Positions 62 to 58,378 are shown, counted from the first letter of the stretch. The stretch is DNA of 64,000 bases from Nanobdellota archaeon (GCA_021791655.1 JAJYWD010000002.1:2128-66127); one strand, 5' to 3'. The notes: generated by a model not told the origin, from the sequence alone. Numbers and translations are program-made.

Positions 62-3000
62 GTGAATTTTACAGAAAAAACGCTTAAATACGAGTATCTT
101 CCTTCTTATAATATGCTACGACTTAAAAGTAATGAAATATTGATGGATTATGGCATAGCTAGAGTTGGACTATTTGCTGCATCGATAATTATACTGTTCC
201 TAGCGCTTTCACTGCTATCCGCACAAATGAACGCTCTGGGCGGAAATGTCAACCCGATTAGTTTACATTCTCCGCAGATCTCATTTAGTAGCTCCCCACC
301 CAAAATAAAATTGTCTATTTCGGGAAATAAGTCCTACGGCAACGTAATTAACATAATAGTAAATATCCCGAACACTTCAGATTATGTCGGCATAAAGATT
401 AGTAACAACGGCTACGATTTTGTAGTGCCTCTCAACAGGCCAATGGCCGCATATTCTGGATTGCTCCCGGTAGGTAAATATACGGTGATCGCATTTTCTA
501 ACAGCAGCGGGATTAAAGATATTACCAAACCCCTAAAAATAAAACAGGCAAAACCGAAGGTAAGTTGCACCCACACTCCCAAATCGAGTTTCGACTATAA
601 CGGTACACCGTTCCATTTGACATGCAATGTAAGCACAATCGATAATCAGCTTAATTATAATTTGTATATAAAATACACATCTAAGAACGGTGGAAAACCA
701 TGGGATAAATATATAGGAAATACAAACACATCGATTTCCTATTCAAATGCCTCGGCAGGCAAATATACATGGACATTCAACACTACTAGAAACCAAAATT
801 ACTCTACTACAAAAAAGGCGGGACACTTAACGGGATACTTATCTATAAAACCTGGAATCGCAATGGAACTAAATGGAGCAATGGATAAAAGACAGCAGAT
901 GGTATACGGCACGCCATCAAATTTCAGCGCCTCTATATCGCCATCCACTGACTTCATCAGCATTTATATAAATGGCACGCTTATGGCAGGACCACGAAGG
1001 GGGAACGTAACATACTCTACTTTGCTGGGTGCAGGCATGTATAAAATTACTGCAGCGACTAATGCTAGTCATATCATTAATGTCTCCTATTTTGAGAATG
1101 TCAGCAAGGCAACCCCGACCATAACCCTTACTGCGACAAGAGGCAACTTCACCTACAACGGCACGACTGAGAATATCAGCGGCTCCGTGTCCAGTGTCAA
1201 CAGCCAGGTCTCCGGTAGTCTATACATCAACGGCTTATTGGAGTCAAGCCTGTACAAGAACGCTACCGCTGGGATATGGAGCGCATGGTTCAACACCACT
1301 GCAAACCAGAACTATTCCGCAGCCCAGTCCCACATCGCAAGGCAGATCTACAAGGCAACGCTCACACAAACATTATCGTCAAGCCCTACGTCTCCTTTCA
1401 CCTACGACGGCAGCGCTCCGACGATAACCGACACTCTTTCAGGCACGCTGGTCAGCGGGCAGTCTGGGCTGTCTTTCGCTCTCGGTAACGATTCGCTCTC
1501 TACGGGGTCTACCGGCTCATCCACGCTTTCCTCTTCGTCTTTCACGTTCTCAGCCCTCGGCGGGAAGTACGCTTCGGCGGGTCCTTACAGTTACACCTCC
1601 ACGTCTAGCGGGGACCAGAACTACACTATTATGAATTCGCCTCCTTTGACAATCACGATAAGCAAGGCAACGCCAGCCATGTCATTGCTTTCTGCACCCG
1701 GCAACTTCACGTACAACGGGACGGAAGACGCTTTTACGGGGGCAGTGACCAGCGTGGATGACCAGCTTAGCGGCGAATTGTACGTGAATGGCACGCTGAA
1801 AACTGGCCCGTATTCGACCGCGACGGTCGGCGTTTACAAAGCCGTATTCAATACTTCTGGCAACCGGAATTACAGCGCGGCTTCTTCAAAAGTCTCGGTC
1901 AGCATCCTACTGGCGGTCCCGGCGCTTTTGTGCGCGTCTAAGCCGGGGAATTTCATAGAAAATGGCACGCAAGAAAACTTGACCTGTAAGATAGACACCG
2001 TAGACAACCAGCTAGCAGCCGATTTGTATATAAACTATTCAAATTCGCTTGGAAGTAGGTGGATGAAATACATAAACCAGACAAACAACGACATTTCGTA
2101 TTATAACTCATCATGGGGGGGATACACCGCGATATTCAATACGTCCGGTGACCAGAACTATACTGGTTTTTCCGTTAACCGAAGCTCTGTAATCAGGTTA
2201 GAGCGTGCGATCATTACAGTAACACCCCCACCGACCTCACAGCCGACTAACAACACGTTGAACTCTTCAAGTTCTGCCGCGAACAACTCGCATTTAGCCG
2301 GTACCAACCCTTCCGGCGTAAATACGCAGAAGGTCTTGACTAATCGAACTAACTTGAACGAGACCAACTTCGGCGACCACATCGTGGAAGTTTATCTCAA
2401 TACGAGCGTGCAAAACGATGCTGTTACTTTAGACTTATCCAAAGTCGTCCCGTCATCTAACTTTTATATACCTATAACTGGAAGCGGCGTAGGCGTGACG
2501 GGCCTGATTGGGATATCTATGGACGAGAATATTAACACTAGCAACGTAAAACTGAATGTAACTAAAGTATCTGACGCCACATGCTTCGGCGGCAATTTGC
2601 CTGCACCAGTCTCATTTGTAAACATAACAACACCATTCAACGAGAGCAAAATATCGCAAGTGATTTATTATTTTGAGGTAAGCAAACAGCAGCTAGCCGC
2701 AGCCAACTTGAGCGCATCGGAAATATCACGTTACAGATGCAACCCGGAAACGCACGAATGGCAGGAACTGCCGACCTATTTCGTATCACAGAATTCTACA
2801 ACAGTCATCTACAAGGCGATATCGCCAAGTTTCTCGCTGTACGGCAGCGCAAAGGGACAGACGATTATGCCGCAGAATACAAGCAGTGCAAACTCGCACA
2901 AAAAGAATGCGACATCGGGCAAACAGGCCCAATTGGTGGAAGTGCAGAGCCTTATTCCTACTAAGGCTTCGGATCCTGGATTTTTGTTCTCATTCATGGC

Positions 3001-3067
3001 GATAGGCGCCATCGCTCTGCCGCTGCTAAGCATGGTAGTATACAGAAAGATATGCACGGTGAGGTAA
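62..3067 (+). CDS. Large cell-surface glycoprotein: N-terminal signal-anchor, about six tandem Ig-like repeats, Thr/Pro/Ser linker, PGF-CTERM-like C-terminal anchor. The ORF opens at GTG 62; the first ATG is at 113 (MLRLKSNEIL...).
   Basis: 1001-aa ORF with a hydrophobic N-terminus (GLFAASIIILFLALSLL) and dozens of N-X-S/T sequons. A repeated module carries NFTYNGT...DNQL...LY(I/V)NG...NQNYS. The linker is TVTPPPTSQPTNNT. The C-terminus is DPGFLFSFMAIGAIALPLLSMVVYRKICTVR, i.e. PGF, a TM helix and a basic tail. Confidence 0.7.
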   Translation: MNFTEKTLKYEYLPSYNMLRLKSNEILMDYGIARVGLFAASIIILFLALSLLSAQMNALGGNVNPISLHSPQISFSSSPPKIKLSISGNKSYGNVINIIVNIPNTSDYVGIKISNNGYDFVVPLNRPMAAYSGLLPVGKYTVIAFSNSSGIKDITKPLKIKQAKPKVSCTHTPKSSFDYNGTPFHLTCNVSTIDNQLNYNLYIKYTSKNGGKPWDKYIGNTNTSISYSNASAGKYTWTFNTTRNQNYSTTKKAGHLTGYLSIKPGIAMELNGAMDKRQQMVYGTPSNFSASISPSTDFISIYINGTLMAGPRRGNVTYSTLLGAGMYKITAATNASHIINVSYFENVSKATPTITLTATRGNFTYNGTTENISGSVSSVNSQVSGSLYINGLLESSLYKNATAGIWSAWFNTTANQNYSAAQSHIARQIYKATLTQTLSSSPTSPFTYDGSAPTITDTLSGTLVSGQSGLSFALGNDSLSTGSTGSSTLSSSSFTFSALGGKYASAGPYSYTSTSSGDQNYTIMNSPPLTITISKATPAMSLLSAPGNFTYNGTEDAFTGAVTSVDDQLSGELYVNGTLKTGPYSTATVGVYKAVFNTSGNRNYSAASSKVSVSILLAVPALLCASKPGNFIENGTQENLTCKIDTVDNQLAADLYINYSNSLGSRWMKYINQTNNDISYYNSSWGGYTAIFNTSGDQNYTGFSVNRSSVIRLERAIITVTPPPTSQPTNNTLNSSSSAANNSHLAGTNPSGVNTQKVLTNRTNLNETNFGDHIVEVYLNTSVQNDAVTLDLSKVVPSSNFYIPITGSGVGVTGLIGISMDENINTSNVKLNVTKVSDATCFGGNLPAPVSFVNITTPFNESKISQVIYYFEVSKQQLAAANLSASEISRYRCNPETHEWQELPTYFVSQNSTTVIYKAISPSFSLYGSAKGQTIMPQNTSSANSHKKNATSGKQAQLVEVQSLIPTKASDPGFLFSFMAIGAIALPLLSMVVYRKICTVR
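548..2201 (+). repeat. Intragenic tandem repeats (about six copies of an 85-100-aa module) inside the surface glycoprotein gene.
   Basis: At protein level, KATPTITLTATRGNFTYNGTTENISGSVSSVNSQVSGSLYINGLL and KATPAMSLLSAPGNFTYNGTEDAFTGAVTSVDDQLSGELYVNGTL recur, as do KPGNFIENGT...DNQLAADLYINYS and FDYNGT...DNQLNYNLYIKY. Each copy ends in NQNYS or NRNYS. Confidence 0.6.
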
Positions 3068-3738
3068 GGAAAGTTATGGTATTAAAGAAGAAGATTAGAA
3101 GCACATTGAGTTATCTGCGTGGTGCGTCCTACCAGACTGCGTTTGCCACTGCAGCGCTAGTAGCAGACAAGATAACGACCTTCGAAGGAATAAAGTACAT
3201 AGAGAGCTTCGGGTATTCCCTGTCCAAGGCTGAGACCAGAGAAATGGACCCCGTAACACACGCGTTTATACAGCATCTTGGCCTAATTGATGGATTAGCG
3301 GCTGGAGTGCCTTTTTCCCTTGGCATGATTTATGGGCTCGGAGTCTTCCTGGACAAAGGACTTAAAAATGACAAGTTCAATCTACTTAACAGGTCAAAGT
3401 ACCTCAAGCTAGCGATGACATTTATGGGAGGTGTTGAAACCGCCATAGCAGCGCACAATTATGCCGAGCTCCAAGGTATTTACACGCCGCTGGACCCTTA
3501 CTTCCTCCCATTAATCGGTACTATAGAGGCGTGCGTGAGCGTGCCGTTCCTGTACCGGCACTTTAAAAACAGGGGAAAACAGACGCAGATAATAAATGAC
3601 AATAAAAAAATAAAGAAAAAGATGGGGGCCGACAAACTGCTGAGCAAAAGAGAGAAAGATTCTATACTTGAACTTTTATTATCAGAAACTAAGGATTTCT
3701 ATAATGATAGGGATTCGTTGCTGGTAAGAGACTCCTAA
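3052..3738 (+). CDS. Hypothetical membrane-associated protein that overlaps the end of the glycoprotein gene.
   Basis: 228-aa ORF with two or three hydrophobic segments and a K-rich C-terminus. No motif was recognised. Confidence 0.4.
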   Translation: MHGEVRKVMVLKKKIRSTLSYLRGASYQTAFATAALVADKITTFEGIKYIESFGYSLSKAETREMDPVTHAFIQHLGLIDGLAAGVPFSLGMIYGLGVFLDKGLKNDKFNLLNRSKYLKLAMTFMGGVETAIAAHNYAELQGIYTPLDPYFLPLIGTIEACVSVPFLYRHFKNRGKQTQIINDNKKIKKKMGADKLLSKREKDSILELLLSETKDFYNDRDSLLVRDS

Positions 3739-7784: not shown

Positions 7785-8477
7785 TCACAGAGGGGGCGCG
7801 CTTTCTTTATTCTTGCGATGCAGATAGAACAGAAAGACCGCCGCAACTATTAATGCTATGATCACGCCCCCGTAAATAACGATATACGTCCCGCTCTGGC
7901 TGGGCGCGCCGAACTGTCCGGGCGGTATGCTAAGATTGAAGATGTTACGGGAGAATTCCGACAGTGCAGTATAATATGGCACGTTCATACCGGGACTGTT
8001 ACCGAACACGTCGAGTTCTGCAGTGGAATCGTTTATGAGCAACAAAAACGATGCTGTATCGCCGGCTGGCGACACCAAGAGACCATAAGCATGGAAACCG
8101 ACAACCCCCGATAAACCGAAAGTCTGGCCGGAAAAATTAGTATATCCGCTCACCCGATACATGTATGCAAACGCTGCGGATGCGGATGAGAGATTAGCGT
8201 AGTTCACCAGTCTGTAAATTGGGGAAAAATTACCATACTCGGGGAGATTATATTCATACGCAGTAAGCACGCCCTTCCCTATGACCGGATAAGTAAGATA
8301 AACGCTCGTGATATTACTTATGCTGGAGTAGTTAGTAGGCATGATCGAATATGAAGTGGCAGACGAAACCGCTACTGCTACGGAAAGTAGCAATGGTATG
8401 ACTAATGCTCCCATCGCCGCGATCCTCACGAAGTCTAAGTCTCCCATACACCGTCCACCCACGTGTTCATTTTGCAC
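7785..8477 (-). CDS. Secreted N-glycosylated protein with a C-terminal TM anchor. The likely start is the internal Met of MGDLDF... or MGALVIPLL...
   Basis: Signal-like AAMGALVIPLLLSVAVAVSSA, many N-X-S/T sequons, and a C-terminal TM (VIIALIVAAVFLFYL) followed by HRKNK. Confidence 0.45.
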   Translation of the reverse strand: MQNEHVGGRCMGDLDFVRIAAMGALVIPLLLSVAVAVSSATSYSIMPTNYSSISNITSVYLTYPVIGKGVLTAYEYNLPEYGNFSPIYRLVNYANLSSASAAFAYMYRVSGYTNFSGQTFGLSGVVGFHAYGLLVSPAGDTASFLLLINDSTAELDVFGNSPGMNVPYYTALSEFSRNIFNLSIPPGQFGAPSQSGTYIVIYGGVIIALIVAAVFLFYLHRKNKESAPPL

Positions 8478-10462
8478 GCCATATTAGCAGTGTTGGAGTA
8501 CTGAGTCACATTGACGTACTTGTACGTGCCAAGAGTACTTATTGTTATCGGTGAGGACGCAGAACCGACGCCGCCAGCCGCAGTAAACGTGTGAGAGTAT
8601 ATGTTGGTCCATGTACTACCGTCGTTAGATACAGCCCATGTCAATGTTACATCAGTGCCATAAGAAGCACATCCTCCGTTTAGAGCATCATAAGCGTAAA
8701 ATCGAGCGTAGAACGTCCCGGTTAGTGAGGAAGAAAACGTCCATTCCCATTCTGCTTGTTCCCACTGGGCCGTCCAACCGTCATTTGTCGTAATATTACC
8801 GTAAACGCCGTCGGGGATAATTGTAGCACCCGGGTTTGTCTGAACGTTATTGGTGGTGGGATTCCAACTGCCAGAGGCGGTGAAAACCGGTGTGGAAGGG
8901 TAATTGATACAGGCCGTGGAAGCCGAGAACGTGATTGACTGCGACAGTCCTGAATAAAGGGAACCAGACGAAGGCGAAGGAGTGTAAGTTGTAGTACAAC
9001 CGCCAGACGAGTTGGACAGCGTATTGACCGAGTAAGAATAATTACCGTAGGACGTAGTGAACGTTGTAGAAGTGGTTGTTGGATTATTCTGTACACTGTC
9101 GTAAGTAACATGCCATGTATAACCCGATGGAAGACCGGATTCCGTGAATGTGGTGATTAGTGGAGCTATTAGTACAGAGGGCATCACATCATTGGGTGGT
9201 GCAGCCCTCACATCAGTCCAGTAAGCTAAATCTGGGTAATTGAACGTACTCGGGGCCTTCGGGGATGACGCACCCTGACAATAGTTGACAAACGCCGCGT
9301 AGTCTGTCATTGATGAGCCGTATCCCCCCCCTGAAGCTATGCTCTTGTAGTTTATAGAATAAGCCGAACTTCCGGCTGTCACAGATGCAGAAAGTATTAT
9401 ATTATTAGAATTCGGAACGGCGTATGTACCGGAGATACCGTACACTTGTGCACTCGTAGAATTCAAGTACGAGAAGAAGTGACCTGGACCAGGTGAACAA
9501 TACGGTCCCCAGCCAAAGTCGGTATACTGTATAGCCGCGCCGCTGGGTAATGAACCGAACAATGCATCAGTCGCGTAGCCTCCATTCGGCGTAGACGAAT
9601 TCGAAAATGTAAAACCAGGGGTGATTACAGACTCCGCCTCACCAGCAGACGAACTGACGAGAAGACCGTCGTTGGCGGTGACCGTGGAATTCCCTTTTAA
9701 TGTGAGAGAAGAGAGACTAGTGGAATTTTTAAAGTCGTCATAAAATGTGAACACATGGGCACCGTCATCGTACTCGCCGTATACGGGAGACAATTGCGGC
9801 GCTTCTCCGGTGGTCAGTGTATTTAAAACGTTGTCATTCGTAGGGAAGAAATCCATATATACGGTTATGCTAGATAGACCTGGTATCCCAGGCCCTATCT
9901 TTAGCCAGTATGTGCTATTGCCGCTTTTGTTGTCATATTCCATCCAGGAAGGCAAGACCGTGCCGTTAGTATAAGAAAATCGTATGTTGTCGAGATTACC
10001 AGCTTCGTATTGTGAGTATGTCTTAGAGTTGAACACTAACATTTGCTGGAATGGTGCCGCAGTGCCGGCGGTCTGCGAATTTGTAAAGGATATCGGCAAT
10101 TGCAGTACTGGCTGAGGGGGGATAAAACACGTGGCGCTTATCGCGTTAAAAAGCGGAACCGACACTGTCACTATGTAAAATGAAGAGGTGCCATTAAGGA
10201 TTATGTATCCAGACCAGCTACCAAAAGTAGTAGTGATGTTATTTTCGCGTCCAAGGGGCACTCCGGATGCGGACAGCACGGAGATGTTAAAGTTGGCGTA
10301 ATCCTCAGGCCCTCCACTAGAGCCCAGGAACTGAAGCGAATAGGTGAAGTTGATAGACCCATTCGATATAGAACTTGTCTTATACTGGCTGCGTACGGAC
10401 GAGAGGGGGAGATTAAACCGCATCAAGGCTTGGGCCTGCCCATTTACCACTTCTACTTCCAT
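8435..10462 (-). CDS. Large extracellular N-glycosylated protein (putative adhesin). It lies in frame with, and 9 nt downstream of, the pilin-like ORF.
   Basis: 675 aa, Ser/Thr/Asn/Gly/Tyr-rich with many sequons. The stop is TAG. Confidence 0.55.
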   Translation of the reverse strand: MEVEVVNGQAQALMRFNLPLSSVRSQYKTSSISNGSINFTYSLQFLGSSGGPEDYANFNISVLSASGVPLGRENNITTTFGSWSGYIILNGTSSFYIVTVSVPLFNAISATCFIPPQPVLQLPISFTNSQTAGTAAPFQQMLVFNSKTYSQYEAGNLDNIRFSYTNGTVLPSWMEYDNKSGNSTYWLKIGPGIPGLSSITVYMDFFPTNDNVLNTLTTGEAPQLSPVYGEYDDGAHVFTFYDDFKNSTSLSSLTLKGNSTVTANDGLLVSSSAGEAESVITPGFTFSNSSTPNGGYATDALFGSLPSGAAIQYTDFGWGPYCSPGPGHFFSYLNSTSAQVYGISGTYAVPNSNNIILSASVTAGSSAYSINYKSIASGGGYGSSMTDYAAFVNYCQGASSPKAPSTFNYPDLAYWTDVRAAPPNDVMPSVLIAPLITTFTESGLPSGYTWHVTYDSVQNNPTTTSTTFTTSYGNYSYSVNTLSNSSGGCTTTYTPSPSSGSLYSGLSQSITFSASTACINYPSTPVFTASGSWNPTTNNVQTNPGATIIPDGVYGNITTNDGWTAQWEQAEWEWTFSSSLTGTFYARFYAYDALNGGCASYGTDVTLTWAVSNDGSTWTNIYSHTFTAAGGVGSASSPITISTLGTYKYVNVTQYSNTANMACKMNTWVDGVWET

Positions 10463-10828: not shown

Positions 10829-11425
10829 TCAAACATGAAGGAACTTGTCTACCAGAGAGTTTATCCTTTCACTGACCTGCATTATGCTTTTCTCGCCGTC
10901 GACCTTCTTGAGGTGAAATTCCTTGGCTATGGATAAGAAAGCCTGCCTAACCCTGCTGACAGTCTCCTGCCTCTCGAAAAGGTGGAGGTTTGAAGGTTCC
11001 TCGCCCAAACGCGAGATTGCGGTTTTCGGTTTGACATCTATTAGTATGCCTAGATCTGGGAGCCTGAATTTAAGGTTTATAGACCTAAGCCATTTGTAGT
11101 TAACGCCAGATGCGTAACCGTAGGCCAGCGTAGAAAACAAATACCTATCGCAAACAACCACTTTACCCTTGGCCAGATATGGTTCTATCTCGCTCGAGAG
11201 GTGATGTGCGCGGTCGGCACAAAACAGTAGCTGAAGGGCGTCCGGTGAGGTGCGCCACTCCTGGCTGAGTGCGGCCTTCGATATCCCTCCGATTAGGCTG
11301 TTAGTCGGCTCCTTTGTGACCAAAAAATGGATGCCATTGCTGTTTAGGTGCTCTCCCAGCAGCGCTACTTGTGTGGACAGGCCAGCACCGTCTAGTCCTT
11401 CAAGAACTATGAATTTTCCATTCAT
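10829..11425 (-). CDS. Thymidylate kinase paralog with a degenerate P-loop (GLDGAGLST: the Walker A Lys is replaced by Leu).
   Basis: 198 aa with a dTMP-kinase fold pattern (FIVLEGLDG...CDRY...). It is translationally coupled (ATGA overlap) to the upstream tmk. Confidence 0.65.
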   Translation of the reverse strand: MNGKFIVLEGLDGAGLSTQVALLGEHLNSNGIHFLVTKEPTNSLIGGISKAALSQEWRTSPDALQLLFCADRAHHLSSEIEPYLAKGKVVVCDRYLFSTLAYGYASGVNYKWLRSINLKFRLPDLGILIDVKPKTAISRLGEEPSNLHLFERQETVSRVRQAFLSIAKEFHLKKVDGEKSIMQVSERINSLVDKFLHV

Positions 11426-12030
11426 ACTACAGACATCACCTCTGTGAGAATCTCGCCTGATATTGAGTTTTTAGTACCGGAATCTAAAAATAGCTTCCAT
11501 CTTTCGGAAAAGAAAGAATTGCTGAACATACGCTCATACAAACCGCCGACTTTTTCCATAAGCCGGAGGTCATTTTCAAAAACGTCGCCACGACGAGATG
11601 CCCTCTTTCTCTCGAGTGTCTCCTTAACCTGCCCATGCAGAAGAATCGTAAGGGTCGGCTTCGGAAGATCCAGCATTTCGACAATAAGTTTCGCCTTGTC
11701 GTACGGTAGTCCCTGGGCACACTGATACGCTACAGATGAGAACACATACCTTTTGCTTATAACAAGATCGTTCTTGTTTAGAAGTTCCCTTATATTTCTT
11801 GAGTCTTTCGTTATGTCTGCCAGAAAAAGGAAGAACTGGGAATCCGGCCCGAGCTTTACCTTGGACGCAAGAAAATTTCTTATTATCCTGCCGAATTGGG
11901 AGCCGTAATCCGGGTACGAAAAATAGGCGGCCTTCAATCCCTGTTCCTTAAGATTCTTTTTCAGGAGATCGAATTGCGTGTCTTTACCCGAGCCGTCTAT
12001 ACCTTCCAAAACTATAAATTTCCCGGCCAT
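11422..12030 (-). CDS. tmk: Thymidylate kinase.
   Basis: 202 aa with FIVLEGIDGSGKDTQ (Walker A) and DRY-like SKRYVFSS. Typical tmk length. Confidence 0.8.
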   Translation of the reverse strand: MAGKFIVLEGIDGSGKDTQFDLLKKNLKEQGLKAAYFSYPDYGSQFGRIIRNFLASKVKLGPDSQFFLFLADITKDSRNIRELLNKNDLVISKRYVFSSVAYQCAQGLPYDKAKLIVEMLDLPKPTLTILLHGQVKETLERKRASRRGDVFENDLRLMEKVGGLYERMFSNSFFSERWKLFLDSGTKNSISGEILTEVMSVV

Positions 12031-18840: not shown

Positions 18841-19653
18841 ATGAAAGTTAGCGCGTTTAAGTTCGTTAAGGTCCTTTTGATAATGCTGATAACCATTTTA
18901 GGCACTGTTCTTTTCACGCTCTATACGCTCTCGCTTTACAGCTCACTCAACATAAGCACGTCACAGGTATACGTGATACCTTCATATCTTTATGTGATAT
19001 ACTTCATAGCGGGCCTGATCGGATTCACGGCCCTTATCCTACTTCTCATAAAACTAAAACTGGGCGGCGTGATCTTCTGGATGTTCGCAGTTATATTAAC
19101 CCTGATTTTGGTTGAGTTCTTTAGTTCCTTCATAGGTATTTTCGGCATCCCATTGGCCATTCTTGTTTCTTATTACTATTACAGGAAAGCGGGGAACACC
19201 GGCAGGAATATCGTTAATCTGGCCATATTCATAACGGTGGGATCTGTTCTGGCCCTGGCATTGGGAGTGACCTTTGCGCTAGTGCTAACTGCAGTTGTAG
19301 CGGTGTATGACTATATCGCTGTTTTCAGAACCAAGCACATGGTTACCCTAGCAAAGGGCATGCTAGATTACGGATTTTTCGCAGGGATGATATTGATGGC
19401 AAAGAGACTAAAGCTACCGAAAGATAAATTCGTTATAGGGGGTGGCGACCTGATATTCCCAGCGATGCTTTCGACCGCAGTATTCTTGTCCTATCCGCTG
19501 CCGGCTTTCTTACTTACAACTTTCGGGGCAACCCTTGGTTTAGCACTTCTATTATTGCTTGGCAGAAAAGGAAAAGCTTACCCGGCGATGGCAGCGATGG
19601 GACCGATGGAGATTCTATTTTTCGGTATTTATATACTTCTGAGCGTCATCTAA
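18841..19653 (+). CDS. GxGD-type intramembrane aspartyl protease, a presenilin/signal-peptide-peptidase homolog (A22-like).
   Basis: 270 aa with 8-9 TM helices. It has YD (VAVYDYIAVF), GGGD (VIGGGDLIFPAM) and a C-terminal PAL-like motif (AYPAMAAMGP), spaced as in archaeal PSH. Confidence 0.5.
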   Translation: MKVSAFKFVKVLLIMLITILGTVLFTLYTLSLYSSLNISTSQVYVIPSYLYVIYFIAGLIGFTALILLLIKLKLGGVIFWMFAVILTLILVEFFSSFIGIFGIPLAILVSYYYYRKAGNTGRNIVNLAIFITVGSVLALALGVTFALVLTAVVAVYDYIAVFRTKHMVTLAKGMLDYGFFAGMILMAKRLKLPKDKFVIGGGDLIFPAMLSTAVFLSYPLPAFLLTTFGATLGLALLLLLGRKGKAYPAMAAMGPMEILFFGIYILLSVI

Positions 19654-26350: not shown

Positions 26351-28120
26351 TTACTCCAGCGTCTTCTTCAAACCATAGTCGTCCTTCAGTCTCTTTTCGC
26401 TTATCTCGGACGGAGAGCCGTCTATCGGCGATTCGAACGTCTTGGTCTTCGGAAACAGTATGAAATCGCGTATGTTATCGTTGTGCTTAAGCACGGCAAG
26501 CACTCTATCAAATCCGAGGGCAAAACCAACGTCTTCGGGCGCGCCGTACTTGAGCGCCTCTAGCAGGAAGCCAAAATCCTTTTCTACGCTCCTTTCGCTA
26601 ACGTTTATGATTTTGAATATTTTCCTCTGCAACTCATCGCTGTTTATCCTGACCGCTCCTCCGCCGATTTCGTTGCCGTTCAGCACCAAATCGAACTGCC
26701 TGGACAGTACCGTATGGGGAGAAGTCTCCAGCATCTTTATGTGGTTGTCCATTGGTGCGGTGAACGGGTTGTGTGACGGCTTCAATTTCCCAGTGACTTC
26801 GTCCTGCTCGAACAGCGGGAACTCATCCACCCACACGAATGCGTACTCCTCGCTGAACCTGCCTATAGCGTCGCCAACAATCTTTCTCAGTTTGCCCAGA
26901 ACGCCGTCAAGAACGCTTTCGGAGAGGTCCGCACCCATTATTATGACATATCCATCCTTGGCCTTCGTCTTGGCGACAATCTCGTCCGCTGCCTTGCCTA
27001 ATGACTCTGCTATGCTCTCCGGCGCGGAACGGAGCTTACCCTCTTCTACAAATAGCCATGTCAACCCCTTTAGACCAAGAGACTTTGCTTCTTCGACGAT
27101 GCCTAACATATATTTCCTGTTTATCTTGCCTCCCCCGAAACCTGCATCGAAGGCCACGCCTTTCGCCTTTCCGCCCGCTTGTAGGACCCTTGTTATCACG
27201 TTGTAGCCACAGTCCTTAAGTTCGCGCGTGAAATCGATTATTTTGTAGCCGTATCGTAGATCCGGCTTGTCGCTCCCATAGTCTTTCACGGCTTCCGCGT
27301 AGCTCATGCGGTGGAACTTCGGCGGTTGCTTTTTCAGTATTTCCTTGAATATTTTCTTAAACAAGCTTTCTATCAGTGCTTGGACGTAGGCTTCATCCTC
27401 GAAAGATATTTCCATGTCAATCTGAGTGAACTCGGGCTGCCTGTCCTCCCTTGCATCTTCGTCCCTGTATGCCTTGCACACCTGGAAATACTTGTCAAGG
27501 CCGGCAACCATACACAGCTGCTTGTAGAGTTGTGGTGACTGTGGCAGTGAATAGAACCTTCCCTTCCGGGTGCGCGATGGCACTAAAAAGGTGCGGGAAC
27601 CGGTCTCATAAGTGTCCCTCACAAGGGTCGGTGTCTCGAGTTCCAAAAATCCGTTTCGCCAGAAAAACTTCCTCATCAGCTTTGATACGGAATCCCGGAA
27701 TTCTATGTTGTCCACCATCTCCTTCCTTCTGAGATCCAGATACCTGTACTTCAATCTGATATCTTCGTTGGCCAAGAACTTTTCCTTCTCTTCTATAAGT
27801 TCGAACGGTGGAGTCTCGGATCGATTTATAACAGAAAACTCATCTACAGCCACTTCTATTTCGCCGGTGGGATTTGACTTGTCTATTGTATCCTTCTCGC
27901 GCTTCATCACGCAGCCGTGGACCCTAACAACAAATTCGCGCTTCAACTCCCCCGCCCCCTTATTTTTATCGCTATCAAAAACTATCTGGGTCACCCCATA
28001 CCTGTCTGCCAAGTCTATGAAGATTTTATCTTTGTGTCCACGCACGTATCTGCACCAACCGTTCAGCATTACCTCCTTATCTTCGTCCGTAGTACGCAAT
28101 TCCCCGCAGTTTACTTCCAT
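26351..28120 (-). CDS. aspS: Aspartyl-tRNA synthetase, bacterial-type (has the GAD insertion domain).
   Basis: 589 aa with an N-terminal OB fold. It carries the class II motifs FRDED and GFALGFDRV, and QSPQLYKQLCMVAGLDKYFQVCKAYRDED matches the bacterial AspRS QSPQ box. An insertion of about 100 aa sits between motifs 2 and 3. Confidence 0.85.
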   Translation of the reverse strand: MEVNCGELRTTDEDKEVMLNGWCRYVRGHKDKIFIDLADRYGVTQIVFDSDKNKGAGELKREFVVRVHGCVMKREKDTIDKSNPTGEIEVAVDEFSVINRSETPPFELIEEKEKFLANEDIRLKYRYLDLRRKEMVDNIEFRDSVSKLMRKFFWRNGFLELETPTLVRDTYETGSRTFLVPSRTRKGRFYSLPQSPQLYKQLCMVAGLDKYFQVCKAYRDEDAREDRQPEFTQIDMEISFEDEAYVQALIESLFKKIFKEILKKQPPKFHRMSYAEAVKDYGSDKPDLRYGYKIIDFTRELKDCGYNVITRVLQAGGKAKGVAFDAGFGGGKINRKYMLGIVEEAKSLGLKGLTWLFVEEGKLRSAPESIAESLGKAADEIVAKTKAKDGYVIIMGADLSESVLDGVLGKLRKIVGDAIGRFSEEYAFVWVDEFPLFEQDEVTGKLKPSHNPFTAPMDNHIKMLETSPHTVLSRQFDLVLNGNEIGGGAVRINSDELQRKIFKIINVSERSVEKDFGFLLEALKYGAPEDVGFALGFDRVLAVLKHNDNIRDFILFPKTKTFESPIDGSPSEISEKRLKDDYGLKKTLE

Positions 28121-28319: not shown

Positions 28320-28937
28320 TCAGCCCACAAGCTTTGAAAGATATTTGCTTATTCTTTTTCTGAGGATAAACAGCACGACTATTAGCGCGCCGACCACAAC
28401 TAGAAAACTCGAATTGTATATAAGAGAGGCAATCATGTCCCAGTTCTTTGCCAGCAGATAACCAGAGTACATGAGCGCGGCGGACCATATTAAAACACCC
28501 CCCGCAGTATACGCTATGAAACCTTTTAAGTCCATCTCGAATGCACCGCAGATTATGCCGGAAACAGACCTTATGGCGGGAAGGAGTTTGGAAACGAACG
28601 CGAAGAAATTTCCGTATTTCTTTATCCACTTCTCGGCCTTTTCGTAGTCCCCGGCGCTTATCCTGAACAGCCTAGTGTGCTTCTTTACCACGTCTACGCC
28701 CAGCACGTACCCCAGCCAGAAACCTATAAGATTGCCTATGAGCGAGCCCACTACCGCCACGATGAAGGCCAGTACAGGATCCCGGATTGCCCCCTCATAG
28801 ACTAGAAAACCCGCGAACGGCAGAACGATTTCGCTGGGGATTGGAAGCACTATCGATTCCAGCATCATCAGGAAAAATATCGCAACGTAGCTGTATGAAA
28901 GCACCAGGCTCTCGAGCGAGCTCAGGTCTAGGAACAT
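28320..28937 (-). CDS. DedA/TVP38-family membrane protein.
   Basis: 205 aa with about 5 TM helices and the DedA-like re-entrant motifs (ESIVLPIPSEIVLPFAGFLV, LLPAIRSVSGIICGAF). Confidence 0.7.
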   Translation of the reverse strand: MFLDLSSLESLVLSYSYVAIFFLMMLESIVLPIPSEIVLPFAGFLVYEGAIRDPVLAFIVAVVGSLIGNLIGFWLGYVLGVDVVKKHTRLFRISAGDYEKAEKWIKKYGNFFAFVSKLLPAIRSVSGIICGAFEMDLKGFIAYTAGGVLIWSAALMYSGYLLAKNWDMIASLIYNSSFLVVVGALIVVLFILRKRISKYLSKLVG

Positions 28938-31497: not shown

Positions 31498-32907
31498 CTA
31501 AGGCAGACCCAAGACAATCACTTTACTCTGGTTGTATAGCCCAGCATACAAAAGCCCGTTGATAGGATCGTAGGTTAGTCGCAGCGGGTCTGCATTCGGG
31601 AATGGCATGCTGATGTTATTGATTATTACGTTGCTGTTAGAGATAACGAAAATAGAGTTAGTGCCCCACTCTGAAGTGTATATATTTCCATCGGAAGGAT
31701 CATAAGCGACGTTGGAAGCACAACACGGACCCAGTGAGATGTTGGCGATTGTACTGGAAGTAAGGGGATCTATCACAGCCGTTGAATTAAAGGCCCATGT
31801 AGCAAAGTAAACATAGCCGTTCTTTGGATCGTATACGCCATCGTTCCATCCCGCCCCCGTTATATTCTCTGTGGGAGTAACGCCCGAGATTACAGTGGTT
31901 ACCAGTTTATTGCCGATAGGCACGTAGATATCGCCGTTGGCGGGATCGTATGCGGCTGTGGACCACGTTCCTGACGTTAGGGCGGCCGGTAGCGCCGGCT
32001 CAGCAACTATTGCATTTGTTGATGTATTTATTATAAACACTTTACTGGAGTTCCTGCTACCGACATATAAAAGCTTGTTCTGAGAGTCCAACACCGCGCC
32101 CCACGTTTCTTCCCCCGTTTTAATGGTGGTTACAAGCGATCCAGAAGGCGTAATAACCGATATATTAGCGCCGGCGCTGTAAGTAACATAAAAGTCACGG
32201 TCGGTTGGAACGTAAACCGCGCTTATCGGGCTGGCATTGTAAACTTTTATGGTATTAACTACGGCATTTGTGAAGCTGGAAATTACTGAGATTGTACCGA
32301 TTCCGTTATTGACAATGTACAAGTTCCCGTTCACTGGGTAGTATGTAACGGTGTGTGGATGTGTGCCAACGCTGATATTAGCCAAGACTTGTACTGGTCG
32401 GTTAACGCCGGTGCCGCTGGCAACACCGGACGAAGAGTAGGGCCCGGCGAAGGCTACGCCTATCTCACTGTAATTCACAATTATATCGAGAGAATAATGA
32501 ACACCCGTAGATGGACACGCATTGCTTATGAAAACCGGAACCATCGATCCGGCGTTCACTATTATGCCAGCAGTTGGGACATCCGCAACCAATCTTGTTC
32601 CGTTTGAAGTCGTCACGATGACAGTACTTATATTTAGGGGAACACCAAGAGCATCTCCGAGTTTTAGCACAAGGCCATAATTTGAGATGCAACTGGCGGT
32701 AACGCTCCCAAGACCGCCGAAGCCGTTGACGGAAGCGAATATGGAAGCAGACGGATTGAATATCCCTAAGGAATATAGAACGGCAGCGACTATGACTATG
32801 ATGAGTATGGCCCAGCCGTAGGTCATCATGTACTCGAGGGCGGATTGGGATTTTTTGTCTGCTAGAATTTTTCTGTCTGTAATATATACGGAGGACTCCG
32901 GCTTCAT
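31498..32907 (-). CDS. Pilin-like surface protein: a class III signal peptide fused to a YVTN-type beta-propeller domain. The start is taken as ATG 32907; the listed ORF opens at GTG 32928.
   Basis: The N-terminus KKSQSALEYMMTYGWAILIIVIVAAVLY is a class III prepilin signal. The body has repeated about 40-aa units with a YVTN/YV..S pattern (NVAYDPSDGNIYTSEWGTNSIFVI, YDPANGDIYVPIG, YDPINGLLYAGL). Confidence 0.65.
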   Translation of the reverse strand: MKPESSVYITDRKILADKKSQSALEYMMTYGWAILIIVIVAAVLYSLGIFNPSASIFASVNGFGGLGSVTASCISNYGLVLKLGDALGVPLNISTVIVTTSNGTRLVADVPTAGIIVNAGSMVPVFISNACPSTGVHYSLDIIVNYSEIGVAFAGPYSSSGVASGTGVNRPVQVLANISVGTHPHTVTYYPVNGNLYIVNNGIGTISVISSFTNAVVNTIKVYNASPISAVYVPTDRDFYVTYSAGANISVITPSGSLVTTIKTGEETWGAVLDSQNKLLYVGSRNSSKVFIINTSTNAIVAEPALPAALTSGTWSTAAYDPANGDIYVPIGNKLVTTVISGVTPTENITGAGWNDGVYDPKNGYVYFATWAFNSTAVIDPLTSSTIANISLGPCCASNVAYDPSDGNIYTSEWGTNSIFVISNSNVIINNISMPFPNADPLRLTYDPINGLLYAGLYNQSKVIVLGLP

Positions 32908-32955
32908 ACCATCCCTATGTACTATCACGATTTAATACGTTTCTTTTTACTGTGA

Positions 32956-38930: not shown

Positions 38931-39092
38931 ATGAAGTGCACATTCTGCGGTTCTGATATAAAGAAGGGTACTGGCATAATGTACGCAAGCATAGACGGCA
39001 ACGTATCAAATTTCTGCAGCAGGCGCTGCATGAAGTATTTCATTATGGGAAAGGACCACAGAAAGTACAAATGGTCCTCGCAAAAAAAGTAA
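38931..39092 (+). CDS. rpl24e: Ribosomal protein L24e (not in the ORF track; shorter than 60 aa).
   Basis: MKCTFCGSDIKKGTGIMYASIDGNVSNFCSRRCMKYFIMGKDHRKYKWSSQKK is the C4 zinc-ribbon L24e. It sits in the canonical L7Ae-S28e-L24e position. Confidence 0.7.
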   Translation: MKCTFCGSDIKKGTGIMYASIDGNVSNFCSRRCMKYFIMGKDHRKYKWSSQKK

Positions 39093-39118
39093 ATAAACTT
39101 CGAGATTCTCTCTATCTT

Positions 39119-39982
39119 GTGGGTAACAAAAAGGGAGTCATAAGTACCGTGTCTATCGTTATATCGATAATAGTACTCATTCCGATAGTCATCTTTGTGG
39201 GATTCATATTCATTTCCGGGATAGCCGGCATAAGGACGCAGATACAATCAATCTCAGGTTACGTTTCGGACACGCAAACGGCGCTGTATAGCGGCACATC
39301 GGTCATCGTTGGTACACTCTCCCCCGTCTTCAGCGGGAACCAGTTCATGGCACAATTCTACGGCGGCCCGGCCTGCATGACACTGATAGACGAACTAGCC
39401 AGGACTAGTATACTAACCGAGCCGAACGACCCATCCACACTAAGTGGCAAATTCTTCGTCTGCGCCGGCACGTTTTCTAACTTCTCCTCCTCACCAAATG
39501 TGAACGAATTTTGGGATTATTTACCGATACCGCCGGGAAACGCGCAGAGCATACTGCCATCATGGACATTGGATGGCGGTTACAACCTAACCAACTTGAT
39601 CGTAGGGGAGGTAAACGGCTCGCATGGGTCGCTTAGCTTTGCCAATTACACGGGCCGACCCTCATCGCTTGCAAAGGTTGAAACGCAGCTATCAACAGCG
39701 TGTGAGAGTTTCCTGAATTCCACAGTATATTCTTCCAGTAGCGGAACAGAATATAATGTACCTTCCGCTTACATATCAGCGATAACATGTGCGCCTCTGG
39801 CGGTGCAGAACAGCCAACCGGTTTTCATAAGTCTGCGTCGGGGCAACTGCGCGGCTAACTCCCCGGAGTGCAGCTACAATCCGTTGTTGTTTATGCACGG
39901 AGAGCCGGCTTCGATACAGATACAGACCTGCAATTATCTATCAGGAGCGCCATCGCTCACATGCGAAATAGAAATGAGTTGA
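39119..39982 (+). CDS. Pilin-like secreted glycoprotein (class III signal peptide). GTG start; the listed ORF opens at 39071.
   Basis: With the GTG start the N-terminus is (M)GNKKG|VISTVSIVISIIVLIPIVIFV, a short basic leader plus hydrophobic helix typical of archaeal prepilins. The body is Ser/Thr/Asn-rich. Confidence 0.5.
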   Translation: MGNKKGVISTVSIVISIIVLIPIVIFVGFIFISGIAGIRTQIQSISGYVSDTQTALYSGTSVIVGTLSPVFSGNQFMAQFYGGPACMTLIDELARTSILTEPNDPSTLSGKFFVCAGTFSNFSSSPNVNEFWDYLPIPPGNAQSILPSWTLDGGYNLTNLIVGEVNGSHGSLSFANYTGRPSSLAKVETQLSTACESFLNSTVYSSSSGTEYNVPSAYISAITCAPLAVQNSQPVFISLRRGNCAANSPECSYNPLLFMHGEPASIQIQTCNYLSGAPSLTCEIEMS

Positions 39983-39986
39983 AAAT

Positions 39987-41105
39987 ATGAGAGGACAGAT
40001 ACAGTACGAAGGGATAATAATGTTCGTCCTTATGGCGATAATAATCATTTTCCTGGTCTTCGCATTCGCTGGTTTCTTCACGCCAGTAAATTCGCAACAC
40101 TACTACAATGAAATCAACAGCATGATAAGCCAGGCATGTTACTCTACTCAGTCAGCTAGCAGCATCCAGCTAAACAACCCTAAGGCGGTCGTGTTCCAGA
40201 TTTACGACAACCCCGTCTGTAATACGACCCTGTCTAGCAGTCACGCGTTCCAAAACAGCTCGCCATACAACAGCAAGCTATTAAGCAGAAACTTCGACCT
40301 CTGCTATGGAGAACTGGGAAAAAGTGACACGTTCGGCGCGTACAGCACGAAAGTATCCGGCCCGGCCCAATACTACCTTACCGCCGGCAGCGCCCCCCTT
40401 ACATACCTTAGCGTTGTTACACCGGATTCCAACTTGGGACAGCCAACCCCGACTACAGTCTCCTCCTCGTCCAGCGAATTATCAGAATACGGGCTTGCCG
40501 CGGCAAGTGTAGACCAGACGGGGCCGGCGCCAACCTTCAATTCTTACCAAATAGATTGGAACGATCCGATTTACGCGAAGAACAATTACGTGTACACACT
40601 GTACGCTTATTCCAACGTTTCCGGATTGCTGGGTGTGACTATAAGTGAAAGCGGCTGCAATATAGCACCATTTGCGATACAGCTCGCGGCCGGTCACATA
40701 AAGATATCGACGCTAAATCTGGGCTGTAACAGCACAGGCACCATATATACGAACTTCCCTTACGGAGGGATGAACGGAAAATACGTCCCGGTAAAACTGC
40801 AGGAGAACATGAGCGCACAGAAACACGAACTGCCAAACTACTACCAGAACACGCTAGCACAACAGTGCTCCAATCTCGTAACCGACATAAACAATAACGC
40901 AATAGAAAACGGCACGCTAGTGTGCGCACCCATAAACTGCGGTAGCAACAATGCCAATTTCGTGCTTTCCGACGAGCAGAGCAGGCCGCTCCTAGCCATG
41001 TTTCAGGAGAGTTTCCCGTACTTTGCGGTTTCATCCGGCCTGTTTTCAAGCCTCGCCATAACCAATCCCAATGTCGAGGTAGAAAAGAACGAATCGCTCG
41101 TATAG
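39987..41105 (+). CDS. Pilin-like secreted glycoprotein (class III signal peptide).
   Basis: The N-terminus MRGQIQYEGIIMFVLMAIIIIFLVFA matches the RGQ...EY plus hydrophobic-helix motif. It is 372 aa with many sequons and Cys residues. Confidence 0.5.
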   Translation: MRGQIQYEGIIMFVLMAIIIIFLVFAFAGFFTPVNSQHYYNEINSMISQACYSTQSASSIQLNNPKAVVFQIYDNPVCNTTLSSSHAFQNSSPYNSKLLSRNFDLCYGELGKSDTFGAYSTKVSGPAQYYLTAGSAPLTYLSVVTPDSNLGQPTPTTVSSSSSELSEYGLAAASVDQTGPAPTFNSYQIDWNDPIYAKNNYVYTLYAYSNVSGLLGVTISESGCNIAPFAIQLAAGHIKISTLNLGCNSTGTIYTNFPYGGMNGKYVPVKLQENMSAQKHELPNYYQNTLAQQCSNLVTDINNNAIENGTLVCAPINCGSNNANFVLSDEQSRPLLAMFQESFPYFAVSSGLFSSLAITNPNVEVEKNESLV

Positions 41106-41571: not shown

Positions 41572-41695
41572 CCGCCCATAGCTCAATGGCAGAGCGACCG
41601 GCTGTAGAATAACCGAGTGCTACTTTGTAGTGCTATGAAGGGTTTCAGTCGATATAGAAACCGGTAGGTTGCAGGTTCAACTCTTGCTGGGCGGA
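41572..41695 (+). tRNA. tRNA-Tyr (anticodon GTA) with a roughly 52-nt intron after position 37.
   Basis: The cloverleaf has a CCGCCCA/TGGGCGG acceptor stem (C1:G72, as in archaeal tRNA-Tyr), discriminator A, GCTC/GAGC D-stem and GCAGG-TTCAACT-CTTGC T-arm. The ACCGG...CCGGT anticodon stem encloses loop CTGTAG|intron|A. Confidence 0.7.
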
Positions 41696-57493: not shown

Positions 57494-57592
57494 GCGGGGA
57501 TAGCGAAGCTTGGCCCAACGCGCAGGACTTAAGATTCTTATAGGAAATCCTGTGGCTTAGCGCCCTCGTGGGTTCAAATCCCACTCCCCGCA
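57494..57592 (+). tRNA. tRNA-Leu (anticodon TAA), class II with a long variable arm and a roughly 13-nt intron.
   Basis: Acceptor GCGGGGA/TCCCCGC plus discriminator A, D-arm GCG...CGC, T-arm GTGGG-TTCAAAT-CCCAC. Anticodon stem CAGGA/TCCTG encloses CTTAAG|ATTCTTATAGGAA|A. Confidence 0.7.
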
Positions 57593-58281: not shown

Positions 58282-58378
58282 GCAGGGGTAGCGAAGTGGT
58301 CAAACGCAACAGCCTCAAGAAAAACTTGAGCAAGCTGTTCCCTTTGTGGGTTCGGGGGTTCAAATCCCTCTCCCTGCA
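58282..58378 (+). tRNA. tRNA-Leu (anticodon CAA), class II with a roughly 13-nt intron.
   Basis: Acceptor GCAGGGG/TCCCTGC plus discriminator A, D-arm GCG...CGC, T-arm GGGGG-TTCAAAT-CCCTC. Anticodon stem ACAGC/GCTGT encloses CTCAAG|AAAAACTTGAGCA|A. The intron is complementary to the anticodon region. Confidence 0.7.

Follow-up and report, generated by a model that had tools for sequence, protein, structure and literature searches.

What kind of protein is displayed on the surface of an uncultivated archaeon, and how is it held in the membrane? This question is raised by a gene of about 3 kb on the plus strand of a 64-kb stretch of DNA from a Nanobdellota archaeon (GCA_021791655.1, JAJYWD010000002.1:2128-66127), the whole of which is called the window below. 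A preliminary description made from the sequence had taken the product of this gene for a giant, repeat-rich surface glycoprotein ending in a PGF-CTERM-like signal, perhaps for the dedicated cargo of archaeosortase A (ArtA), and possibly for the surface-layer (S-layer) or major envelope protein of a wall-less acidophile. The present analysis supports this interpretation only in part. On balance, and with modest confidence, we consider the protein to be a strain-variable, glycosylated adhesin of a DPANN archaeon, which is built of immunoglobulin (Ig)-like repeats and stands on a GAIN_B/ZU5-like stalk domain (TIGR04213, MAIN-type) followed by a C-terminal transmembrane (TM) helix.

In the mechanism that we propose, the protein would be exported through Sec by means of its N-terminal signal or anchor and would extend outwards from the cell surface as a rod of seven Ig-like beta-sandwich modules. 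It would be held in the membrane by the GAIN_B/ZU5-like domain, the putative archaeal counterpart of MAIN, together with a stalk of about 40 amino acids (aa) and a single C-terminal TM helix with a short basic cytoplasmic tail. Possibly, the ectodomain can be cleaved at a conserved [FLM]-Ser turn in this domain and is shed when force is applied. DPANN archaea are tiny symbionts that stay attached to their hosts, and the molecules of contact are little known; a variable, repeat-built family of adhesins on a GAIN-like stalk would be a concrete candidate for attachment or detachment.

Gene and layout of the surface protein

The open reading frame (ORF) at 62..3067 (+) was verified; it encodes 1001 aa if read from GTG 62, and residue numbers refer to this frame throughout. 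The NCBI annotation starts at ATG 113 and yields a product of 984 aa, which occurs exactly in NCBI assemblies (P0018). ATG 113 is the likely start codon, and we regard it as fitting because a TTAAATA box lies at 84-90, about 26 nt upstream; if this box acts as a promoter element, its spacing would imply a leaderless mRNA. The hydrophobic N-terminal segment and the TVTPPPTSQPT linker that had been described for this ORF are both present in the translation. From the N- to the C-terminus, the protein consists of a signal or anchor helix, seven Ig-like modules, a linker rich in Ser, Thr and Pro, a domain of 170 aa, a stalk of 40 aa and a tail beginning with DPGF. The features of the gene are as follows:

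84..90, +: TTAAATA, candidate archaeal TATA box (read from the sequence; promoter role putative)
113..3067, +: surface-protein gene, 984 aa (NCBI product P0018; DNA match to other assemblies)
113..235, +: N-terminal signal peptide or signal-anchor (hydropathy; helix in the AlphaFold2 (AF2) model)
284..556, +: type-B module 1, aa ~75-165 (self-alignment with aa 282-366: 31% identity, E 8e-8)
557..826, +: type-A module 1, aa ~166-255, SFDYNGT...IDNQL...LYIKY...RNQNYS (47-51% identity to aa 615-701, E 6e-18)
905..1108, +: type-B module 2, aa ~282-349 (self-alignment; strands in the AF2 model with a predicted local distance difference test score (pLDDT) of 70-86)
1109..2206, +: type-A modules 2-5, aa ~350-715 (self-alignment, up to 51% identity, E 4e-24)
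2207..2338, +: low-complexity S/T/P/N linker including TVTPPPTSQPT, aa 728-738 (sequence; pLDDT <35)
2339..2854, +: C-terminal juxtamembrane domain, aa 760-931 (TIGR04213 match; modelled as a GAIN_B/ZU5-like beta-sandwich)
2828..2836, +: S923-F924-S925 turn between the last two beta-strands (DSSP on the model; family motif)
2855..2971, +: stalk linker of ~40 aa, rich in S/T/N/K/Q, with two sequons (sequence, sequon count)
2975..2983, +: Pro972-Gly973-Phe974 tripeptide abutting the hydrophobic helix (sequence; unrecognised by TIGR04126)
2981..3043, +: C-terminal hydrophobic helix FLFSFMAIGAIALPLLSMVVY, 21 aa (hydropathy; AF2 helix at 957-983 of the 984-aa form)
3044..3064, +: short basic tail RKICTVR (sequence; stop codon TAA at 3065-3067)

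The N-terminal hydrophobic stretch is VGLFAASIIILFLALSLLSA (aa 35-54), with Arg34 within the n-region according to the hydropathy profile, and in the AF2 model a helix spans residues 6-41 (numbering of the 984-aa form).

A variable array of Ig-like modules

Self-alignment resolves two types of repeat: five type-A modules (aa ~166-255, 350-435, 436-535, 536-620 and 621-715), which share 31-55% identity with E-values down to 4e-24, and two type-B modules (aa ~75-165 and ~282-349), which share 31-35% identity (E 8e-8). The periodicity previously noted thus holds under alignment, with seven modules in place of "about six". In the full-length AF2 model the mean pLDDT is 52, and values of 70-87 are reached over aa ~267-617 and ~817-932, giving the appearance of a string of beta-sandwich beads; type-A modules 2-4 (to aa ~617) are such beads with a pLDDT of 70-87, and module 5 stays below 50. 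The closest structures in the PDB found by Foldseek for the repeat region are tandem arrays of Ig and fibronectin type III (Fn3) domains, among them the grappling-hook protein GhpA (9flp, E 6e-10), cytokine receptors and contactins. Because these matches are tandem Ig/Fn3 arrays, the test of the repeat fold suggested in the preliminary description has a positive outcome, and the repeats of the AF2 model can be called Ig-like.

The protein contains 51 N-x-S/T sequons, about 2.5-fold more than the 20.7 +/- 3.8 expected from 2000 shuffles (z ~8). The picture of a giant surface glycoprotein is therefore retained as far as size, secretion, repeats and sequon content are concerned, while glycosylation itself is deduced from the sequons. 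Surface display, glycosylation and an adhesive or host-contact role are all suggested by these sequence features.

Several observations bear on the variability of the gene. Where six other assemblies overlap it, their DNA matches with 100% identity, and one of them (L001) spans the whole gene. Five contigs from independent assemblies break off within the gene, in different repeat modules: at 525 (L009), 1211 (L007/L002), 1322 (two contigs; L003/L004) and 2149 (L008). A near-identical allele, P0001, has 90% identity overall and is a mosaic, in which the N-terminal part of a paralogue (P0003) is joined to the present sequence from about aa 353 onwards. In paralogues, beta-propeller or DUF2341 inserts are found between the same modules. 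Taken together, the contig breaks, the mosaic structure of P0001 and the insert-bearing paralogues are the behaviour of a modular, recombining, fast-evolving family of adhesins.

A GAIN/MAIN-like domain next to the membrane

The domain preceding the stalk matches the model TIGR04213 ("PGF-pre-PGF", cut-off 28 bits) at aa 816-927 with 32 bits in the whole protein and 36.3-36.5 bits in C-terminal fragments, and P0001 has been named a TIGR04213 PGF-pre-PGF domain protein by the JGI. A model of aa 760-931 based on an alignment of 29 sequences reached a pLDDT of 86.4 and a predicted template modelling score (pTM) of 0.80. When the C-terminal domain was submitted to Foldseek, the GAIN domain of BAI3 ranked first (E 5e-4, probability 1.0, TM-score 0.42), followed by BAI2, CD97, GPR110 and CELSR1; according to two independent methods, the nearest solved folds are GAIN_B and ZU5, and the domain has the form of a GAIN_B-like beta-sandwich. 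At the level of sequence, a profile search of the surface protein gave no match to the GPS or ZU5 models, and an attempt to link the C-terminal domain to solved structures by sequence returned merely chance-level matches to actinoporins. In its reading of the domains the preliminary description is borne out in so far as a TIGR04213 domain is present above the cut-off, yet it had overlooked the GAIN/ZU5-like nature of the juxtamembrane domain.

The last beta-turn of this domain deserves particular attention. DSSP places S923-F924-S925 between the strands formed by model residues 155-162 and 167-172. Among 92 motif-bearing family members, the turn follows the pattern [ST]-P-G-[FLM]-S-x-[FY]-A-[IV]. 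Position +1, at which S, T, A or Y were permitted by the search pattern, is Ser in 91 of these members, and position -1 is F, L or M in 87; position -2 is occupied by Gly in 74 and by Ser in 15 members, never by His, and the alignment contains no other conserved His. Thus, the nucleophile-like Ser is conserved in the family alignment and the canonical base His is not. The S-F-S tripeptide also resembles the SF/S self-cleavage site reported for the FIIND of NLRP1 and CARD8. From its position in the model, the SFS turn would be the topological equivalent of the GAIN/MAIN H-X-(S/T) site, with F924/S925 as the candidate cleavage bond, and the C-terminal domain is a candidate MAIN domain.

Microbial Autoproteolysis INducing (MAIN) domains are GAIN_B-like domains of bacteria and archaea that cleave themselves at H-X-(S/T) in the last beta-turn, in proteins with the order signal peptide, adhesion or enzymatic domains, MAIN, surface anchor (Brogan & Rudner, bioRxiv 10.64898/2026.05.12.724683, May 2026). 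The surface protein has the same architecture, with adhesion domains between the signal peptide and the MAIN-like domain and a surface anchor at its end. It shares the N-to-C order of MAIN proteins such as Bacillus subtilis YfkN, and in both a conserved hydrophobic-Ser pair lies in the turn before the last strand. The differences are that the archaeal family has Gly or Ser at position -2 and in no case the catalytic His of the HX(S/T) motif, and that the anchor is a TM helix in place of a sortase, SLH or cell-wall-binding module. The accessible rows of the structure-based table of that preprint include archaeal proteins ending in "ZU5" from Methanosarcina, Methanoregula, Methanomassiliicoccus, haloarchaea and Bathyarchaeota, one of them with a TM helix, as well as archaeal members of the type PKD...ZU5(+TM helix); no DPANN entry is among these rows, and the cleavage assays of the preprint took in no archaeal member (10.64898/2026.05.12.724683).

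The closest solved folds belong to the GAIN domains of adhesion G-protein-coupled receptors (BAI3, 4dlo; CD97, 9mqr) and to the ZU5/FIIND domains of ankyrin, UNC5B, NLRP1 and CARD8, and here too the domain lies just before a membrane anchor. Identity is only 6-10%, with TM-scores of about 0.4, so that common ancestry with GAIN/ZU5 is not established, and the surface protein lacks the GAIN_A subdomain, the Cys/Trp signature of the GPS and the seven-transmembrane signalling unit. Two haloarchaeal PKD proteins, WP_246975478.1 (Natribaculum luteum) and WP_247010766.1 (Halorientalis litorea), contain the same TIGR04213 domain (69.6 and 45 bits, versus 36.5 bits here) and share the layout of domain, linker, PGF, hydrophobic helix and basic residues with similar spacing. 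Their tails are canonical, with PGFG, a helix rich in Ala, Leu and Val and RR(R), and one of them passes the PGF-CTERM model TIGR04126 with 28.8 bits, whereas the tail discussed here, PGFLFSFMAIG...RKICTVR, obtains no score. The surface protein is a further member of already known kinds. Its significance lies in the fact that the MAIN architecture would be extended to DPANN archaea and to a variant of the motif without the catalytic histidine, which is directly testable in vitro.

The idea can be taken further, although we consider the following version rather improbable: TIGR04213 would be a His-less archaeal branch of the GAIN/MAIN domains that cuts at [FLM]/Ser (here F924/S925), so that a glycosylated Ig rod of about 880 residues would be kept non-covalently on a membrane stub of 77 residues and released under mechanical load at host contact. 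The stub might also be processed by a divergent exosortase-family enzyme of DPANN archaea that reads a non-canonical PGF signal.

Does the TIGR04213 domain imply an archaeosortase?

An exhaustive search of the C-terminal 267 aa against 1.84 billion representatives yielded 103 relatives, and the counts refer to the other 102. A hydrophobic helix is present within the last 50 residues of 84 of these 102 representatives; the PGF tripeptide (Pro-Gly-Phe) is found in this region in 10, and in 9 of these the tail is canonical. In the surface protein 47 aa separate Ser925 from PGF, compared with 32-55 aa in six canonical members in which the tail directly follows the domain, and in members without PGF the median distance from the domain to the start of the TM helix is 55 aa. 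The domain-to-anchor distance is therefore alike in members with and without PGF. Together with the rarity of PGF, this indicates that the TIGR04213 domain is a general juxtamembrane stalk and that it is combined with several kinds of anchor, among them PGF-CTERM; judged from the family, its presence does not imply ArtA.

The C-terminal tail of the surface protein, DPGFLFSFMAIGAIALPLLSMVVYRKICTVR, is present as described before, except that it is 31 and not 32 residues long. It has the tripartite layout of PGF-CTERM, with DPGF, 21 hydrophobic residues and RKICTVR directly before the stop codon. Neither the whole protein nor its last 32, 40, 60, 242 or 267 aa were matched by TIGR04126 (cut-off 24.5 bits; searches at E<=10 or E<=1), and no other model of a C-terminal sorting signal recognised the tail even at E<=10. 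A synthetic canonical tail and the tail of N. luteum, which served as controls, scored 50.5 and 28.8 bits, and the assignment to PGF-CTERM in the preliminary description accordingly failed the check proposed there. In a hidden Markov model (HMM) of our own, built from nine canonical PGF tails, the tail scored 0.1 bit, in the same range as ordinary TM tails, and near-canonical variants obtained 10-18 bits.

The tripeptide is also not conserved. The C-terminal 267 residues of P0001 are identical to those of the surface protein, PGF tail included; beyond this allele, PGF is present in none of the homologues compared (P0002-P0015, P0026-P0031 and the locus L006). These end in a plain TM helix and a basic tail, which in several of them is much longer, and most homologues carry an additional "ESGLPSGY..." domain before the anchor that the surface protein does not have. 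Most likely, the PGF tripeptide does not function as an archaeosortase signal and simply belongs to a type-I anchor of the ordinary kind. More generally, PGF beside a helix, even in combination with a "PGF-pre-PGF" domain, is insufficient to call a protein an archaeosortase substrate.

Alternative explanations

The most serious competitor is that the protein is a genuine archaeosortase cargo, in which case a divergent enzyme of the ArtA/exosortase family encoded elsewhere would recognise DPGF, the helix and RKICTVR, remove the helix and attach an archaeal lipid. Several points count in its favour and against the adhesin anchored by an ordinary helix. Canonical family members from ArtA-type lineages share the layout of domain, linker and PGF with similar spacing, the 47 aa found here lie within the range of the six canonical members, and the TIGR04213 family contains nine canonical PGF-CTERM tails; ArtA itself has been characterised in the haloarchaeal lineage (reviewed in PMC6098224). 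By our rough estimate, which is not a computed value, PGF exactly at the start of the helix would arise by chance in only ~0.1-0.3% of TM-anchored proteins. The genuine-looking tail of H. litorea (ASGPGFGVLVLIGAFLIVIVFFRRRS; WP_247010766.1, L015, on plasmid NZ_CP095485.1) reaches only 12.7 bits with TIGR04126, far below the cut-off. TIGR04126 therefore under-calls some PGF-CTERM tails rich in Ile, Val and Phe, and with this imperfect sensitivity the failure of the present tail is moderate and not decisive evidence. Lastly, Ca. Micrarchaeum harzensis possesses one exosortase-family gene, Micr_00378 (540 aa; PF09721 1.6e-19, TIGR03109 2.2e-14) (Krause et al. 2022, PMC8975820, supplementary file 8), so that enzymes of this family exist in ARMAN-type DPANN archaea and the archaeosortase hypothesis stays alive.

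Set against this are the lack of any match to the sorting-signal models, the score of 0.1 bit in our own HMM and the absence of PGF from all homologues beyond the near-identical allele. A scan of the ORFs of at least 100 aa confirmed that no other protein of the window ends in PGF, a TM helix and a basic tail. Neither the window nor the 8.5 kb beyond its end contains an exosortase-like multi-TM ORF; the products of the multi-TM ORFs scanned in the window are an amino-acid permease, an EamA-like protein, a presenilin-type protease, a DedA/UptA-like protein and a transporter of the major facilitator superfamily. The M. harzensis table rows that could be accessed contain no annotation of TIGR04126 or TIGR04213 (PMC8975820). 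Synteny with M. harzensis was of no help in locating an exosortase neighbourhood, as the gene order is not conserved. In sum, the idea of an ArtA cargo is weakened, not refuted, and we regard it as possible but doubtful.

A role as S-layer protein or as the main protein of the envelope is very unlikely. The protein is large, secreted, sequon-rich and membrane-anchored, and some archaeal S-layer glycoproteins are indeed PGF-CTERM proteins made of Ig-like domains (review PMC6098224). The obvious comparison is SLP_Mh (Micr_00292), the experimentally supported S-layer protein of the only acidophilic micrarchaeon in culture (Gfrerer et al., bioRxiv 10.1101/2021.04.28.441871), which is likewise large (~100 kDa) and sequon-rich, has an N-terminal hydrophobic segment and belongs to an acidophilic DPANN host. 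SLP_Mh is the most abundant protein of its organism and carries the S_layer_N domain (PF05123/TIGR01564), which was not detected in the present protein with Pfam or NCBIfam at E<=10, and the earlier suggestion of an S-layer function is not upheld. In addition, a multi-paralogue, domain-shuffled and strain-variable family fits adhesins, not a lattice-forming protein. It is scarcely credible, finally, that the gene is an assembly chimera or in decay and that rearrangement produced the PGF tail without any meaning attached to it. Such an origin would agree with the contigs of five assemblies that break inside the gene, with the differing N-terminal half of P0001 and with the lack of the "ESGLPSGY" domain that relatives carry before the anchor, but the 3-kb ORF is intact, its DNA is 100% identical over the overlaps in six assemblies (in L001 across the whole gene), no remnants of the missing domain lie downstream and the domains are modelled confidently. 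The notion that the tail is a frameshifted remnant of the "ESGLPSGY" domain was likewise dropped, as tblastn found no trace of that domain downstream.

The host organism

Among named organisms, the closest relatives of the aspartyl-tRNA synthetase (AspRS) encoded at 26351-28120 (-) come from Ca. Parvarchaeum and from metagenome-assembled genomes (MAGs) of Parvarchaeota and Micrarchaeota, with only 54-62% identity, and the homologues of the surface protein also come from "Parvarchaeota" MAGs. By these relationships the host is a DPANN archaeon of the Micrarchaeota/"Parvarchaeota" kind, not the wall-less acidophile that had been assumed. A Thermoplasma-like wall-less host was considered and rejected in view of the AspRS relatives, all from DPANN MAGs, the isolated L3-L4-L23 genes and three unusually long tRNAs.

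The AspRS is 589 aa long, which is a bacterial length, and its relatives carry the GAD insertion domain PF02938. Taken with the identities above, these features suggest that the lineage has an old AspRS of bacterial type and that the genome is distant from those of all named species. The genes of the ribosomal operon are scrambled: the trio L3-L4-L23 (4276-6285, -) is isolated from the rest of it and flanked by a membrane ORFan of 153 aa and pyruvate kinase, not by L2-S19-L22, and L1 and L10 (36707-38190, -) are located 30 kb away. Rfam identifies four tRNAs, three of which (41572-41695, 57494-57592 and 58282-58378, +) are 97-124 nt long and presumably contain introns; ARAGORN missed two of the three and mis-read the third as having a 4-base anticodon.

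The downstream ORF and other genes of the window

The surface-protein gene is followed by a second membrane protein gene:

3076..3738, +: ORFan membrane protein, 220 aa from ATG 3076 or 228 aa from ATG 3052 (NCBI calls the 220-aa form)

The sequence GGTGAGG at 3058-3064 precedes ATG 3076, which lies 9 nt past the stop of the surface-protein gene, so the true product is probably the 220-aa form and does not overlap. The overlap with the 3' end that had been reported for a 228-aa ORF is thus probably a start-codon artefact; the same report's statement that the ORF has no recognisable function stands, as no Pfam or NCBIfam model matches it and its sole match among 5.8 billion protein clusters is itself. 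Its hydropathy profile shows some four hydrophobic segments, and its C-terminal tail is charged. The ORF is present and identical in other assemblies of the species and is probably co-transcribed with the surface-protein gene. The possibility that it is a conserved partner or a hidden sortase was examined and discarded, given the lack of homologues and of family matches; as the L006 relative lacks it downstream, it cannot count as a partner conserved in this family.

Further surface proteins are encoded in the window. A pair at 7785-10462 (-) comprises a DUF2341 protein of 675 aa (PF10102, 28.9 bits) with an "ESGLPSGYTW" domain, whose gene overlaps the start of that of a 230-aa protein with a signal peptide, a C-terminal TM helix and a basic tail; the length of the DUF2341 gene product varies among assemblies of the species (663, 796 or 472+291 aa). 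The 476-aa protein encoded at 31498-32928 (-) begins with a class-III (pilin-like) signal sequence, KSQSALEYMMTYGWAILIIVIV..., and has weak, sub-threshold matches to SGL-type (beta-propeller) Pfam models; from its sequence, it looks like a pilin-fused adhesin. The ORFs at 39071-39982 and 39987-41105 each begin with a single N-terminal helix.

Two of the multi-TM proteins bear on envelope and glycan-carrier biology, namely the presenilin-type intramembrane aspartyl protease at 18841-19653 (+), of the SPP/PSH type with YD...GGGD motifs (PF06550, 39 bits), and the homologue of DedA/UptA-like polyprenyl-phosphate transporters at 28320-28937 (-), with a VTT domain (76 bits). At 10829-12030 (-), two tandem thymidylate-kinase paralogues of 198 and 202 aa are located beside the small subunit of PolD.

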